Source: Planctomycetota bacterium
Lineage (GTDB): Bacteria; Planctomycetota; B15-G4; JADJEK01
Length of the DNA stretch: 64,000 nucleotides
NCBI GenBank assembly: GCA_044225365.1
Contig: JBGAIQ010000013.1
Coordinates: 1 to 64,000, forward strand
Direction of reading: 5' to 3'
Position 1 is the first letter of the stretch, and every line of letters begins with the position of its first letter. Of this stretch, positions 9,277 to 14,455 are shown piece after piece. The notes under the pieces were generated by a model that saw nothing but the letters and a program-made list of their open reading frames with translations, did not search any database and was not told the origin of the DNA. The translations under genes and the position numbers were made by a program.

Positions 9277-9672
9277 GTGAAGAACGAGAATGCCCGCTCA
9301 TCCGGTACGAACCGCCGTGACTTCAACCGACTGATCGCGCTCGCGGTCGGCGGCACGATCCTCGGCGCGACGGCCGGCTGCCAGGGTTCGAAGAGCGCTC
9401 CGGCGCAGGCGGAGATGGCGACGGGCAAGCACGCCTGCAAGGGCATGAACACCTGCAAGGGTCAGGGCGGCTGCAAGTCCGACTCGAACTCCTGCAAGGG
9501 CATGAACGACTGCAAGGGTAAGGGTGGCTGCGCCACGGCGGAGAAGCACGGCTGCAAGGGCAGTAACGAGTGCAAGGGCCAGGGCGGCTGCAAGACGGGC
9601 AACAACGGCTGCGCCGGCAAGAACGACTGCAAGGGCAAGGGCGGTTGCGCGGTCCCCGTCGCCAAGCACTGA
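9277..9672 (+). CDS. Cys-rich RiPP precursor, bufferin BufA2-like, with Tat signal and lipobox
   Basis: AAGGAG RBS then GTG at 9277. NRRDFN twin-arginine motif, hydrophobic stretch, TAG-C lipobox, then four C-[KA]-G-x-N-x-C-K-G-x-G-G-C units. Lies directly upstream of DUF692. Confidence 0.85.
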   Translation: MKNENARSSGTNRRDFNRLIALAVGGTILGATAGCQGSKSAPAQAEMATGKHACKGMNTCKGQGGCKSDSNSCKGMNDCKGKGGCATAEKHGCKGSNECKGQGGCKTGNNGCAGKNDCKGKGGCAVPVAKH

Positions 9673-9778
9673 TCCTCGTCGATCGAACCCGATCGTGATC
9701 GACGCGAGCGTGGAGCAGAAGTCCACGCTCGCGTCCGATCGTTTTCCGCGGAAGCGCCCAAGGCAGGCCAACACGAGA

Positions 9779-10633
9779 ATGAAGGCAGCGAAGTCCCGCA
9801 ATCGGTTCGGACTGCAAGACCTCGGCATCGGGGTCGGGCTGCGGACCGTTCACTTCGGGCATGTCGTCGAAGAGCGCCCCGCGGTTGACTGGTTCGAGAT
9901 CATTTCCGAGAACTTCATGGGCACGGGCGGTCGCCCGATTTACTTCCTCGATCGCGTGGCCGAGCGCTATCCCATCGCGATGCACGGCGTCTCGCTCTCG
10001 ATCGGCAGCGCCGATCCGGTCGACTTCGAGTATCTGCGGGGATTGAAGGCACTCGCGAAGCGATGCAACGCTGTCTGGCTCGGGGATCACGTCTGCTGGA
10101 CGGGAGTCGCGGGCCGCAACACGCACGATCTCCTGCCCTTGCCCTACGACGAGGCGACGCTCGATCACGTCGTCGCCAAGGTGAAGCGCGTGCAGGACTT
10201 TCTCGAACGGCCGCTCGTCCTCGAGAACCCGTCGACCTACGCGACCTTTCGCCATTCGACGATGTCGGAGCCCGAGTTCATCGCGCGGCTCGCGACGGAA
10301 GCGGATTGCGGGATCCTGCTCGACGTCAACAACGTCTACGTGACGTGCCGGAACCACGGTCTCGATCCGCTCGCCTATCTCGCAAAGATCCCGTTCGACC
10401 GCGTGGTGCAGATCCACCTCGCGGGTCACACCGACAAGGGCACGCACTGCATCGACACCCACATCGGTCCCGTCATCGATCCCGTGTGGGATCTCTACGC
10501 CAAGGTGATGCAGAAGGCGGGGCCGATCGCGACGCTGCTCGAATGGGATGAAGCGATCCCGGCTTTCGGCGTCGTGCACGACGAGGCGCTGAAGGCGGCG
10601 CGGTATCGCGATGCGATGAGCGTGGTGCGATGA
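9779..10633 (+). CDS. Multinuclear non-heme iron oxidative enzyme (MNIO, DUF692; BufB/MbnB family)
   Basis: GIGVGLR, FEIISENF, HGVSLSIGS, DHVCW, DLLPLP, LENPSTY, LLDVNNVYV, IHLAGH, IDTH, LLEWD. Confidence 0.96.
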   Translation: MKAAKSRNRFGLQDLGIGVGLRTVHFGHVVEERPAVDWFEIISENFMGTGGRPIYFLDRVAERYPIAMHGVSLSIGSADPVDFEYLRGLKALAKRCNAVWLGDHVCWTGVAGRNTHDLLPLPYDEATLDHVVAKVKRVQDFLERPLVLENPSTYATFRHSTMSEPEFIARLATEADCGILLDVNNVYVTCRNHGLDPLAYLAKIPFDRVVQIHLAGHTDKGTHCIDTHIGPVIDPVWDLYAKVMQKAGPIATLLEWDEAIPAFGVVHDEALKAARYRDAMSVVR

Positions 10634-11517
10634 AAGGGCGTCGGAAGCAGGCGGCTTCGAATCCGTCGATCGCCCCGCCGATCGGCCTCTCGCAATTTCA
10701 GAACTGGATGCAGGCGATCATTCAGCATCCCCTCGGCCCCGCGGTGGCCGCGAAGAGCGACGCTATGCGCTGGATCGAGCTTCCTTCGAATGACATCGAA
10801 CGAGTGGTGCTCCCGTCGAAAACGCTCACCGGGCTCGAGCGCATCTCGATCTACGCGGAGATGTACGCCGCACGACTCGTGGATTGCCTGCAGAACGACT
10901 TCCCTGCGCTCGCTCACGCACTCGGCGCCGACGCTCACCCGTTCTTCCATCGCTTCGTCGCCGCGCGACCCTCGACGAGCTGGACGCTGAATCGGCTGGG
11001 TGCCCCGTTGCCGGGCTACCTACGCGAGCATGTTCAGGCCTACGACAACGGCGAGTTCCTCGCCGAACTGGCGACTCTCGAGCGCGCGGTGGAGGAGGCG
11101 TTCGACGCGAGCCGGGCGACGACACTCACGCCGAAGTCACTGCGCTCGATCCCGCCATCGAAGTGGGGGGAGATTCGTTTCGCGTTCTCGCCGGCGTTCT
11201 CCCTTCACGCATTCGCCTACCCGGTGAACCGCTACTACGATTCGTTCCGCAATGCACGTCCGATCGCGATACCCCGCAAGAAATCGACCTGGATCGCGAT
11301 CACACGACCTCAGTATCAAGTCTTCCGCCATCCCCTGTCGCGCCTCCAGCACGCCTTGCTGACGGCGCTGCATGAGGACAGGCTCCACCTCGGCGACGCC
11401 GTCGAACGCCTCGCGAGGAACAAAGACCGCGAAGTCGAGAAAGCGCTCGGATCGATCGGAGACTGGTTCGAGACGTGGACACGCGCGGGGTTCTTCCGGG
11501 CCGCACGCGCATCCTGA
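10630..11517 (+). CDS. MNIO partner protein (DUF2063, BufC/HvfC-like)
   Basis: ERISIYAEMYAARLVDCLQNDFP and LAELATLE motifs. ATGA-coupled to DUF692. Confidence 0.85.
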   Translation: MKGRRKQAASNPSIAPPIGLSQFQNWMQAIIQHPLGPAVAAKSDAMRWIELPSNDIERVVLPSKTLTGLERISIYAEMYAARLVDCLQNDFPALAHALGADAHPFFHRFVAARPSTSWTLNRLGAPLPGYLREHVQAYDNGEFLAELATLERAVEEAFDASRATTLTPKSLRSIPPSKWGEIRFAFSPAFSLHAFAYPVNRYYDSFRNARPIAIPRKKSTWIAITRPQYQVFRHPLSRLQHALLTALHEDRLHLGDAVERLARNKDREVEKALGSIGDWFETWTRAGFFRAARAS

Positions 11518-11563
11518 GCAGGCTCGGATCTCGGAATCGTGCCAACCGCGAGGACAGCACGAT

Positions 11564-11651
11564 CGGACCGCCGGGCTCTGCCCGGCATCTTCTTGAAGCC
11601 GCCCGGCCGGACCGCCGGGCTCTGCCCGGCATCTTCTTGAAGCCGCCCGGC
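11564..11651. repeat. Perfect 44-bp tandem duplication containing REP-like hairpin GGACCGCCGGGCTCTGCCCGGC
   Basis: 11564-11607 and 11608-11651 both read CGGACCGCCGGGCTCTGCCCGGCATCTTCTTGAAGCCGCCCGGC. Confidence 0.92.
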
Positions 11652-12358
11652 ATCGTCGGGAACGTGCCACCGTGGGTCGGACAACACGTCGGGCGCGCCC
11701 GGGGAGCTCCGTTCGACTCCGCGCGCGGAGTACCGCGCATGCTGCGCGAACGGACTCCCCGATGCGCTTATGTCCTTTCGAGGGGAAAGGTCGTGGAGGC
11801 CCACTTTGAAATGGATCGAGGCGCCTTGGCTGGAGTGCCGCGGACGGCACCCCAGCCAAGGCTTTCCCCACGTGTCTTCGCGACGAACCCTATGGGGTAG
11901 GTAGGAACGCGGTCACCTTGCGCGCCCGTAGCACGGACATCTTTGAATTCGGCCCAGTTAGCGGGATCTACCCTTTCGTCGGCGTGCATGGGAACGCGTC
12001 GATATGGGTCGGACCGCCGGGCTCTGCCCGGCATTTTCTTGAGATCGCCCGGGATCTTTAGGAACGTGCCACCGTGGGCAGGACATCGCGTCGGACTCCC
12101 CGATGCGCTTCTGTCCCTTCGAGGGGAAGGGGCAGGGGCCCACTTTGAAATGGATCGAGGCGCATTGGCTGGAGTGCCGCGGACGGCACCCCAGCCAATG
12201 CTCTCACTACCTTTCTTCGCGACGAACCCCCACGAACTGGGAGGGTAGGTAGGAACGCGGTCACCTTTCGCGCCCGTAGCACCGTCATCTTCGAAGGCGG
12301 CCCAGTTCGCGGGGTCTACCCTTTCGTCGGCGTGCATGGGAACGCGTCGATATGGGTC
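11609..12358. repeat. Two tandem multi-hairpin units (402 and 348 bp) delimited by REP-like GGACCGCCGGGC motifs
   Basis: Units 11609-12010 and 12011-12358 share long blocks such as CCCACTTTGAAATGGATCGAGGCGC, GGTAGGTAGGAACGCGGTCACCTT and CTACCCTTTCGTCGGCGTGCATGGGAACGCGTCGATATGGGTC. Confidence 0.92.
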
Positions 12359-12370
12359 GGACCGCCGGGC

Positions 12371-14398
12371 GTGCGCCGGGCAAAGCTCGGGCAAGGAGGA
12401 TCGAGACATGTAATCGTGAAACCTTGCATTGGATCCCCGCGGGTCGCAGCCCGCCCGGCATTAGAGGGTCGCTGGCCGGAACCGAGTGATGCGCGAGACG
12501 GAGGCGACTCCGGCCGCGAAGCGTTCACAGGAAGCATGCAGGCCCAGTATGGAGCTCCGAAATGTCCCTCGCGAGAGCCGACATCGTGCCTAGAACTGGA
12601 AGGCCACTGTCACGCATCGAACGACCAACGCGGTGCGTGGTCTCGCCGGAGTCAGAGACCTGGGCATGTAGGCAGGGGGATCCCCGGGAACCCGGGAGAT
12701 CTGACCATCTCCGATCCACTCGCGGTTGGTGGAAGCCGCGTACCAAAATCCAGGCCGAGCGACGCGCGACCCGCCGTCTCGGAACGAAAACAGGCTCGCA
12801 ATCGGTACCGCCGAACGAAGCATTGCGAAGTGAAGCGGGACGGATGGTCAGAAGTCAGAGTGACGCATATGACCGATGAAGCGGGGGAATCGAACCCGAG
12901 AGACCCCGTGGAGGAAAGGCGGCACCGGGATCAGGCAGCGGCGAACGGCAACACGAACGGAACACCGAGTCCGCAAAGCGTGTCTACGAAACTTCGCCGC
13001 ATCGCGGAGTTGGCGAGGCAAGTGCGTGGGGTGGCGCTCACGACCCTGTCGCACCATATCGACGTGGAGTTTCTGAAGCGTGCAGTGGATCAAACTCGCC
13101 GCGATGGCGCGGTGGGTGTCGACAAGATGACGGCCGACGAATACGAGAAGGACCTTTCGTCCAACTTGGAGTCGTTGCTCGGCCGATTCAAGACCGGCAC
13201 CTACTTCGCACCACCGGTGCGGCGAACACTGATCCCGAAGGGCGATGGCAAGAAGACTCGGCCCATCGGCATCCCGACGTACGAGGACAAAATCCTCCAG
13301 CGTGCCTTGCTGATGTTGCTTCAGGCGGTGTACGAGCAGGAGTTTCACGACTTCAGCTACGGCTTCCGCCCGAGTCGTTCGGCCCATCAAGCCGCTCAGC
13401 ACGTGCGAAGAGCGATCATGGAGATACGGAGCGGCTGGGTCTTGGAAGTCGATATCCGGAGTTTCTTCGACTCTCTGGATCACGGCCATCTGCGCAGTTT
13501 CCTCGACCAACGGGTCCGAGACGGTGTGCTGCGCCGACAGATCGACAAGTGGTTGAAAGCAGGAGTCCTCGACGATGGTCAGGTGAAGTACCCGACCACG
13601 GGATCGCCTCAGGGCGGCGTGATCTCGCCGCTGCTGGCGAACGTCTATCTCCACCACGTGCTGGACGAATGGTTCGTCAAGACGGTGAAGCCGCTCATGC
13701 GCGGCAAGGTGGAGTTGGTGCGATATGCGGACGACTTCGTCTTCGTGTTCGAACATGAGACGGATGCGCGCCGCATCCTGGCCGTGCTGCCGAAGCGATT
13801 CGGCAAGTACGGCCTCGCGCTGCACCCCGACAAGACCCGGTTGCTGCCGTTTCGTCAGCCGCCCTTTGGCGGTTGGCCTGATACCGGCGACCCAGCCTGG
13901 ACGGGTGCGGCTCATCCGCCGCGGACGTTTGATTTCCTGGGATTCACGTTTGCCTGGACACTCACGCGTCGAGGCGGTCACGCGGTGTTTCTCTACACCG
14001 CGAAGGACCGCCTGCGCCGGACAGTGAAGGGCATTCATCGGTGGCTCCGAGATTCACGCCACTTACCGATCGAAGAGCAGCACGCGACGCTGTGTCAGAA
14101 ACTGCGCGGCCACATGGAGTACTTCGGCGTCACCGGCAACATTCGCCGGCTGCAGGTCGTCGTACGCTGGGCCGAGCGATCCTGGCATCAGTGGCTCAAT
14201 CGCCGCTCGCAGCGCAAGACGATGACGTGGGCACGATTCCATCGAGTCCTCCTGCGGTTCCCATTGCCTCGCGCGGAGATTGTCCACTCGGTCTACCGTC
14301 CCGGCGCGAGCTCCTGATCGCGAAGAGCCGGATGCTGGAAATCGGCACGTCCGGATCTGAGGGGGGCCGGGGCGGAACGCCGCCCTGGTCTACCCGAT
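12371..14398 (+). mobile_element. Group II intron (2028 nt), apparently intact, IEP without endonuclease domain
   Basis: 5' GTGCG at 12371. DIII-like ACCGATGAAGCGGGGGAA...GACCCCGTGGAGGAAAGG at ~12871-12920. Domain V GAGCCGGATGCTGGAAATCGGCACGTCCGGATC at 14325-14357 (AGC triad). Domain VI has a bulged A at 14392 and ends ACCCGAT at 14398. Removing the intron restores a perfect inverted repeat. Confidence 0.93.
12980..14317 (+). CDS. ltrA: Group II intron reverse transcriptase/maturase
   Basis: AVGVD, RPIGIPTYEDKILQRA, SYGFRPSRSAHQA, VDIRSFFD, GSPQGGVISPLLANVYLH, RYADD, FDFLGF and maturase X (LRGHMEYFG). No HNH tail. Probable GTG start at 12980 (VSTKLRRIAELA). Confidence 0.95.
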   Translation: MSTKLRRIAELARQVRGVALTTLSHHIDVEFLKRAVDQTRRDGAVGVDKMTADEYEKDLSSNLESLLGRFKTGTYFAPPVRRTLIPKGDGKKTRPIGIPTYEDKILQRALLMLLQAVYEQEFHDFSYGFRPSRSAHQAAQHVRRAIMEIRSGWVLEVDIRSFFDSLDHGHLRSFLDQRVRDGVLRRQIDKWLKAGVLDDGQVKYPTTGSPQGGVISPLLANVYLHHVLDEWFVKTVKPLMRGKVELVRYADDFVFVFEHETDARRILAVLPKRFGKYGLALHPDKTRLLPFRQPPFGGWPDTGDPAWTGAAHPPRTFDFLGFTFAWTLTRRGGHAVFLYTAKDRLRRTVKGIHRWLRDSRHLPIEEQHATLCQKLRGHMEYFGVTGNIRRLQVVVRWAERSWHQWLNRRSQRKTMTWARFHRVLLRFPLPRAEIVHSVYRPGASS

Positions 14399-14455
14399 TC
14401 CAGCCCGGCTCTTCTCCTGCGATACGACCGGAGCCGGGCTGGAGCCCGGCGGTCC
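14399..14455. repeat. 3' part of a REP-doublet inverted repeat split by the intron
   Basis: 12359-12370 joined to 14399-14410 gives GGACCGCCGGGCTCCAGCCCGGCT, the exact reverse complement of 14432-14455 AGCCGGGCTGGAGCCCGGCGGTCC. Spacer is 21 nt. Confidence 0.9.

Follow-up and report, generated by a model that had tools for sequence, protein, structure and literature searches.

What places a group II intron exactly between the stem and the loop of a small palindromic repeat, the recognition of the hairpin or the reading of its sequence? The question is raised by a contig of a Planctomycetota bacterium (JBGAIQ010000013.1, assembly GCA_044225365.1), of which positions 1 to 64,000 were analysed (the window, 64,000 nucleotides [nt], to which all coordinates without a contig or locus name refer). 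A first-pass annotation, made from the sequence alone, had described an intron at 12371-14398 inside a hairpin that resembles a repetitive extragenic palindrome (REP). It suggested that this intron does not look like a member of class C and uses an abundant intergenic REP family as a multi-copy safe harbour, and it implied an analogy with the class C introns that recognize hairpins. According to our analysis, the element is a complete IIB-like intron which encodes a protein without endonuclease (En-minus) and probably homes by sequence into a REP of its host.

Intron anatomy and splice boundaries

The full-length intron comprises 2028 nt (12371-14398, plus strand; GUGCG...AU), and its limits follow from Rfam matches, from the ends of related introns and from the repeated sequence that its excision restores. 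RF02005 (domains I to IV) matched at 12446-12661 with 108 bits (cut-off 49). RF00029 (domains V and VI) matched at 14323-14398 with 47.7 bits (cut-off 40), its last base being exactly 14398. With GTGCG at 12371 and AT at 14397-14398, the intron agrees with the consensus GUGYG...AY, and its initial bases can be aligned to the starts of related introns. Excision joins position 12370 to 14399 (GGACCGCCGGGC-TCCAGCCCGGC) and yields GGACC-GCCGGGC/TCCA-GCCCGGC-TC (the slash marks the insertion point here and below), which forms a G+C hairpin of 7 bp. This exact rejoined 23-mer, including its TCCA loop, is found uninterrupted 28 times in the genome, by which both splice boundaries are independently confirmed. 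The first-pass boundaries 12371 and 14398, and with them the position at the stem-loop junction, therefore hold.

Domains V and VI (14323-14398, plus strand), delimited by Rfam and by the corresponding sequences of relatives, contain a candidate branch-point A at 14392. Domain V is of the AGC type; the triad of class C introns is CGC. Domain IV harbors the gene for an intron-encoded protein (IEP) of 482 residues (12869-14317, plus strand), whose translation contains the YADD motif of a reverse transcriptase/maturase. The protein matched TIGR04416, the equivalog model of group II reverse transcriptases/maturases, with 343.5 bits (cut-off 300), and this match stops at residue 446. In Pfam, RVT_1 was the sole match and neither an HNH nor another endonuclease domain was detected. 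Lacking an endonuclease, the IEP falls among the En-minus lineages, which comprise classes C, D, E and F as well as unclassified introns according to PMC4424553 and PMC3552965.

The target belongs to a REP family of the host

The genome to which the window belongs (103 contigs, 6.53 Mb, 65% G+C) contains 262 hairpins of the type GCCGGGC-N3-5-GCCCGGC and 215 copies of the oriented 12-mer GGACCGCCGGGC that precedes the intron, a copy number that we estimate to be far above chance for a 12-mer of such composition. The hairpin loops are mostly TCT (108), TCC (79) or TCCA (44); REPs with a TCT loop carry a T-rich tail and were detected by a terminator scan. A neighboring hairpin within 100 nt was found for 103 of the 262. 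Convergent doublets within 150 nt number 14, and arrays in the same orientation are commoner (77). A gene for a REP-associated tyrosine transposase (RAYT) is encoded on contig C76 (107885-108550; positions 1192-1857 of our locus L089); its open reading frame, encoding 221 residues, matched NF047646 with 85 bits (cut-off 80), and the gene is surrounded by two REP hairpins upstream and five downstream. The hairpin split by the intron is thus a member of a true REP family. A second, weaker match to Y1_Tnp on contig C75 (L088) has no REP nearby. The pattern with a 4-nt loop, which describes that sub-family only, has 62 matches in this genome, and of 20 related genomes just one contains it, with a single match. 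This near-confinement marks the REP family as lineage-specific among the genomes searched.

Within the window, the 12-mer is present at 11565, 11609, 12011 and 12359 on the plus strand and at 14444-14455 on the minus strand, as the first-pass annotation had listed. Allowing up to one mismatch gave 11 matches, compared to a mean of 1.77 after shuffling, and none of 100 shuffles reached 11. The 12-mer search and the terminator scan together define three unoccupied, terminator-like REPs with TCT loops on the plus strand (11565-11586, 11609-11630 and 12011-12032). A further unoccupied REP (14431-14455, minus strand) is the exact reverse complement of the rejoined site, so that both form a REPIN-like inverted doublet (REPIN, REP doublet forming a hairpin) with a spacer of 19 nt. 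The doublet had been noted before with 24 bp; its inverted match is indeed perfect, but extends over 25 bp. All five REP copies of the window are located between genes with Pfam matches.

Covariation defines the pairing of intron and target

To place the exon-binding sites (EBS) of the intron and the intron-binding sites (IBS) of the target, we used 80 loci with related IEPs, collected from 185,579 species genomes (one genome per species). RF02005 was found in all 20 relative loci that were scanned. Their 3' ends were located with a covariance model built from seven sequences of domains V and VI, and a profile derived from nine intron starts served to locate their 5' ends. The covariation set consisted of 33 unique insertion sites with both flanks, which are related sequences and hence not independent; four twintron loci (L037-L039 and L070) were excluded from both the covariation and the fold counts.

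EBS2 (GUCC, 12564-12567, plus strand) is formed by the four bases directly 3' of the conserved CGAAAU and was placed by covariation. All four bases of this column are complementary to exon positions -12 to -9 in 17 of the 33 sites, and at least three in 27. The mean of 3.24 pairs compares with 1.87 +/- 0.16 after permutation, and none of 2000 permutations gave a value as high. The complementary pairs are diverse, with EBS2 sequences such as CUGA, CCAC, GCUU, UGAC, AACC, GCGA, CGUU and UGCA in addition to GUCC. EBS1 (GCCUAG, 12588-12593, plus strand) is a stretch of six bases preceded by a conserved GU; it lies in the terminal loop of the hairpin GCCGAC...GGAAGGC, a position supported by the Rfam consensus loop and by covariation: the column forms at least five of six pairs with exon positions -6 to -1 in 27 of the 33 sites. 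EBS3 (A, 12654, plus strand) is the bulged base after GCCGGAGUC (also given as CCGGGGUC), which corresponds to a single-base bulge in the Rfam structure. It forms a Watson-Crick pair with the first base of the 3' exon in 29 of the 33 sites, with all four bases represented.

Complementarity to these sites defines the 5' exon recognition sequence in the window (12359-12370, plus strand), which consists of IBS2 (GGAC, 12359-12362), the spacer CG and IBS1 (CCGGGC, 12365-12370); the 5' arm of the REP stem occupies 12364-12370. Analysis of the rejoined site assigns to the 3' exon (14399-14411, plus strand) the IBS3 base T, which begins the REP loop TCCA, followed by the 3' arm GCCCGGC and TC. EBS2 pairs with IBS2 at four of four positions and EBS3 A with T. 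For EBS1 and IBS1 the positions read G-C, C-G, C-G, U.G, AxC and G-C, five of six pairs including one G.U, in agreement with the candidate that had been proposed from the sequence alone. The 11 paired bases fall within a 13-base stretch of that half of the REP which is conserved and asymmetric, and a rough calculation gives a probability of about 1.5e-4 for such a match (4/4, 5/6 and 1/1) at fixed positions by chance. Throughout the genome, the T that matches EBS3 directly follows the 12-mer in 193 of 208 copies located away from contig ends, and GGAC..CCGGGCT sites number 207.

Further copies of the intron

BLAST searches of the genome with the intron revealed a second copy, split over two contig ends: contig C85 carries its first 79 nt at one end and contig C40 its last 137 nt, each with 100% identity. 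The junctions are ...GTGTGCGGACCGCCGGGC/intron on the 5' side and intron/TCCGCCCGGCACCG... on the 3' side. This copy occupies the identical position in another REP, which has a TCC loop, and its outer flanks are unrelated; the corresponding uninterrupted junction is present 47 times in the genome. Where the first-pass annotation had asked about copies in other sequence, the additional copy thus again resides in a REP.

Parts of the window are contained in 20 public sequencing runs from 11 studies, none of them an RNA run; four of the runs were examined in detail. Run X1 contains the intron as a single unitig that covers exactly 12359-14401 without any difference. Since its limits are the 12-nt 5' flank and TCC, the sequence must diverge immediately outside these. 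The junction on contig C40 is also present in this run. The intron unitig has a depth of 37.8, compared to 14 for the unique downstream contig, which hints at two to three intron copies, contig depth not being a copy number. In run X4, from another study, the intron is followed by TCTGCCCGGCATGGGG, a REP with a TCT loop in a new context, and in run X3 the 12-mer is preceded by a new sequence. Compared with the window, the copies of X3, X4 and X5, all from other studies, have 5 to 12 differing letters in 1.2 to 2.0 kb, and those with visible flanks again adjoin REP sequence. No variant of EBS1 itself is listed for these three copies. Just 3' of EBS1, X3 and X4 carry the changes 12594 A>T and 12596 C>A, and X5 only that at 12594.

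Among metagenome contigs, the first 37 nt of the intron gave no match. A 19-nt junction sequence matched 58 times, but since none of the 58 has the intron 5' profile, these matches were attributed to chance.

These data bear on the question of whether the intron was inserted once and later multiplied by recombination or duplication between REPs instead of retrohoming. In favor of recombination, REPs are clustered, as described above, and no difference is seen between those parts of the copies that are visible. Yet the sequence common to the copies is limited to 12 nt on the upstream and 3 nt on the downstream side, and their loops (TCCA, TCC and TCT) and outer flanks differ. Precise insertion at the splice boundaries would produce such flanks and segmental duplication would not, and we regard recombination as very improbable. 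The genome therefore contains at least two independent insertions into REPs. Together with the limits of the X1 unitig, the TCT-loop REP in X4, the conserved T after the 12-mer and the RAYT gene among its hairpins, the second copy supports the idea of a multi-copy REP safe harbour.

Targets of related introns

We then asked which targets are used by six of the related introns. The loci L019-23 of an alphaproteobacterial metagenome-assembled genome (MAG) share the target TTATGGATTCCGG/GC, which has 183 matches in its own genome, often as inverted pairs about 75 nt apart, and none for the reversed control pattern. The target of L009 from Thermoanaerobaculia, CACCTTCT/CCCCCAGC, has 97 own-genome matches, again often in inverted pairs (control, 1), and that of L008 from Eisenbacteria, GTCTCAGCGCTGAGA/C, has 20 palindromic sites in its own genome (control, 0). 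Each of these three multi-copy patterns was searched in the same four genomes. Those of L019-23 and L008 were confined to their own genome, and that of L009 had one to two matches in each of the other three. The targets of L012, L028 and L024 have zero to one match in their own genomes and are not multi-copy. Thus, three of the six relatives tested, from three other phyla, are inserted in a host-specific multi-copy palindromic repeat. If the window is included, this holds for four of seven genomes from four phyla, with the repeat matched by EBS1 of the respective intron.

Many other relatives lie in a conserved, gene-like target, ...GTAGACCACCC/A, without a hairpin. Together with the targets that are not multi-copy, this indicates that REP homing is not a property of the whole clade. 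Since the ascertainment favors multi-copy introns, the REP-targeting pattern is a lead and not yet a rule. In a quick version of an IEP tree, from which L083 was omitted (its longest open frame encodes only 362 residues), the window intron, L008 and L009 form separate long basal branches and L019-23 belong to the crown. The REP-targeting lineages do not form one clade, and their clustering does not exceed that in shuffles. It is conceivable, though we would not expect it on the present evidence, that several lineages of one En-minus IIB-like clade (RF02005-type) have independently retuned EBS1 and EBS2 to REP- or REPIN-like repeats of their hosts, with different repeats in four genomes from four phyla. 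If this were true, REP families would represent a recurrent and renewable niche for retroelements, in which the spread of REPs driven by RAYT keeps creating new homing sites. An intron in a split terminator-like REP would then be transcribed from the upstream gene, and splicing would restore the hairpin.

Some further features of the introns compared deserve mention. The gene-like target is common to a large sub-group from several phyla. Many introns (L013-L055 and others) start with UUGCG or UAGCG and end with GGC instead of GUGYG...AY. In domain V (14325-14357 in the window), the second base of the catalytic triad is placed opposite a purine instead of the usual U: a G faces an A in the window intron, L008 and L009, and an A faces a G in L013, L015, L029 and L034, so that both bases vary jointly in the alignment of domains V and VI. 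Intron positions 5-11 read GCCGGGC in the window (12375-12381), identical to the 5' arm of the REP four bases upstream, and GCCAGGC or similar in relatives; this segment might pair with the 3' arm of the REP in the precursor RNA. The twintrons, all from a Bryobacterales MAG, consist of a GUGCG-start intron of the RF02005 type located 39 nt inside a UUGCG-start intron (e.g., L038, 572-4479). Those of L038 and L037 abut head to tail, the 3' end ...CTACTCGGC being directly followed by TTGCGCC. Finally, a related intron in L083 (2412-4390) lies within a run of GTGTGCAC-type tandem palindromic repeats, and its rejoined site folds far more stably than any other in the set (z -6).

Sequence or hairpin

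The presence of EBS2 and of a bulged EBS3 makes the ribozyme IIB-like. Class C introns have no EBS2-IBS2 pairing and insert just downstream of a stem-loop, and both characteristics are contradicted here: EBS2 covaries with exon positions -12 to -9, and the insertion site lies between the 5' arm and the loop. No conserved hairpin was found upstream of IBS1 among the sites compared, and the two copies in the genome have no upstream hairpin in common. Based on EBS2 and on the insertion inside a hairpin, class C is excluded, and the first-pass reading of the intron type is supported. Among PDB sequences, the IEP matched reverse transcriptases of IIC introns best (158 and 151 bits), but it scored 149 with LtrA, 121 with GsI-IIC and 111 with T.el4h, and these scores do not discriminate between classes. 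A tblastn search of plasmids returned unlabelled reverse transcriptases/maturases only, the best on a Halomonas plasmid (52%).

The structure of the hairpin could itself be the signal, as for class C introns at terminators and attC sites. In that case, the ribonucleoprotein would bind the stem-loop that a REP extrudes on single-stranded DNA, and the pairing of sequences would be of secondary importance. Both copies are inserted exactly at the stem-loop junction, several relatives (L008, L009, L019-23 and L024) reside within hairpin arms, and the IEP has no endonuclease, a property that goes with single-stranded targets. In addition, the folds of 9 of 35 unique rejoined sites equal or exceed in stability those of at least 95% of local control windows. 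These controls include coding DNA, so that the enrichment may merely reflect the intergenic location of the sites. The rejoined site of the window is not unusual in an 80-nt fold (z -0.42 relative to local controls), because its flanks are full of REPs. The geometry of insertion is not fixed either: L009 is inserted six bases into a 14-bp 5' arm, L008 in a 3' arm and L024 deep in a long 5' arm. This variation among the relatives does not support a role of the hairpin structure. Moreover, EBS2 is present and covaries, unlike in class C, most relatives occupy gene-like targets without hairpins, and the 13-base stretch with the paired bases takes in the 5' arm in full, to which EBS1 can bind only when the arm is unpaired. 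We therefore consider recognition of the hairpin unlikely and read it as a property of the habitat rather than a recognition signal. The implied analogy with class C is not supported, since base pairing to one arm and its 5' flank accounts for recognition.

A number of observations nevertheless weigh against homing into REPs. Because of the AxC mismatch at -5 and the G.U pair in EBS1, the REP is not a perfect cognate site, and on single-stranded DNA the 7-bp G+C stem, of which IBS1 is part, would be a competitor of EBS1. In the assembly, no more than 2 of about 200 REP sites are occupied, and the depth in X1 hints at a similarly low copy number. No contig joining 12370 to 14399, i.e. an empty-site allele of this locus, was found in the four runs. 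The single-copy and gene-like targets of relatives have to be added. An alternative would be that the REP is a near-cognate, ectopic target. The true site, with a perfect CUAGGC as IBS1, would then be carried by another element or host, and the insertions into REPs would be rare retrotranspositions after horizontal transfer. The imperfect EBS1 pairing and the low occupancy fit such a history, as does the isolation of the intron: we found no close intron in 40 related genomes (the best match had 48% identity over part of the protein), and the nearest IEP in the species genomes is 57% identical. However, sites with a perfect IBS1 (GGAC..CTAGGCT) are absent from the genome, and allowing wobble pairs yields two, compared to the 207 REP-type sites. 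Furthermore, EBS2 and EBS3 match the REP perfectly, and in X3, X4 and X5 no EBS1 variant is listed and the visible flanks are again REPs. An ectopic origin of these insertions thus appears improbable to us, and we hold to homing by sequence into the host REPs.

A model for homing into REPs

We propose that the excised intron RNA and its bound protein would find a REP through the pairings EBS2 GUCC-GGAC, EBS1 GCCUAG-CCGGGC and EBS3 A-T. Since the bases involved extend from the GGACC flank through the 5' arm of the stem to the first loop base, reverse splicing would land between the 5' arm and the loop. With a protein that lacks an endonuclease, synthesis of the cDNA would presumably be primed by a nascent strand at the replication fork. 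The REP family would offer about 200 near-identical extragenic sites at which an insertion disrupts no gene, and this harmlessness may be the reason why the intron persists. The intron is predicted to splice and is probably still mobile, for which its presence in two or more near-identical copies speaks only indirectly.

Ordinary EBS/IBS homing directed at a REP/RAYT family would give access to hundreds of equivalent, gene-free sites per genome, and an intron of this kind connects two sorts of selfish DNA that are mostly the subject of separate studies. It would provide a natural system for studying the effect of a target hairpin on reverse splicing, an occupancy near 1% of the sites and the retargeting of EBS in horizontal transfer. 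A multi-copy neutral site together with its matching natural intron could also serve for multi-copy gene delivery in such bacteria.

Surroundings of the intron

The neighboring genes are oriented like the intron, with MbnB/TglH/ChrH-like and DUF2063 genes upstream and a DUF2071 gene downstream; their positions place the intron inside an intergenic stretch of 3 kb. The upstream pair (9524-11517), with a match of 354 bits to the MbnB/TglH/ChrH family, is a combination typical of loci for the modification of ribosomally synthesized and post-translationally modified peptides.

Repeat comparison showed that the REP split by the intron terminates the second copy of a dispersed repeat unit of about 280 nt (12092-12370, plus strand). 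The first copy (11751-12022) is closed by the unoccupied REP at 12011-12032. Altogether, the genome contains 19 copies of at least 200 nt, which are dispersed, often in tandem and highly conserved, with others on contigs C13, C18, C40, C70, C73, C84 and C85. The unit carries a long hairpin with compensatory changes between copies, and 15 of the 19 copies finish in a REP hairpin with a T-rich tail (one is degenerate and one cut by a contig end). It matched no Rfam family; over 11500-12400, a search up to an E value of 1 gave sub-threshold noise only. The unit may be a multi-copy small RNA or a miniature inverted-repeat transposable element.

Comparison with known systems

Bacterial group II introns have been described with three target specificities, namely for terminators, for attC sites and for unique homing sites, the last often located in mobile DNA (PMC4424553). 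In our survey of the full-text literature, which covered neither subscription journals nor supplements, we found no IIB-like intron with a REP/RAYT repeat as its EBS/IBS homing site. The only association with REPs was that of a group II intron of P. putida, which adjoins REPs in two of nine copies (PMC1525189).

Class C (IIC) introns at intrinsic terminators and attC sites (Robart 2007; Quiroga 2008, both via PMC4424553) resemble the window intron in their IEP without endonuclease and in their G+C-rich, terminator-like hairpins. They insert after the hairpin, with a short IBS1 and no EBS2, whereas the window intron is inserted inside the hairpin and has a covarying EBS2, an EBS1 of 6 nt and an AGC-type domain V. 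The IIB introns beside attC sites in halophile integrons (PMC7923331) likewise combine a non-IIC intron with a hairpin-forming repeat, and they share the UUGCG 5' end of many of the relatives described here. A role for structure in these introns has been a matter of speculation (PMC7923331). As far as described there, they lie just downstream of attC without exon conservation, while the window intron is inserted inside its hairpin, at a site of which every base is conserved.

REPs are known as landing sites also for insertion sequences (Tobes and Pareja 2006, PMC1525189). Those are DNA transposons, whereas the window element is a retroelement guided by RNA-DNA pairing, whose relatives were apparently retargeted to other host repeats. 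With RmInt1 and other En-minus IIB-like homing introns of classes D, E and F (PMC4424553, PMC4075523, PMC8914252), it has in common the logic of EBS2, EBS1 and EBS3, the lack of an endonuclease and a multi-copy mobile or repeated target; the gene-like target of many of its relatives is likewise a conserved, repeated one. It differs from RmInt1-type introns in the nature of this target, which is a REP/RAYT palindrome of about 22 nt with about 260 copies rather than the gene of an insertion sequence.

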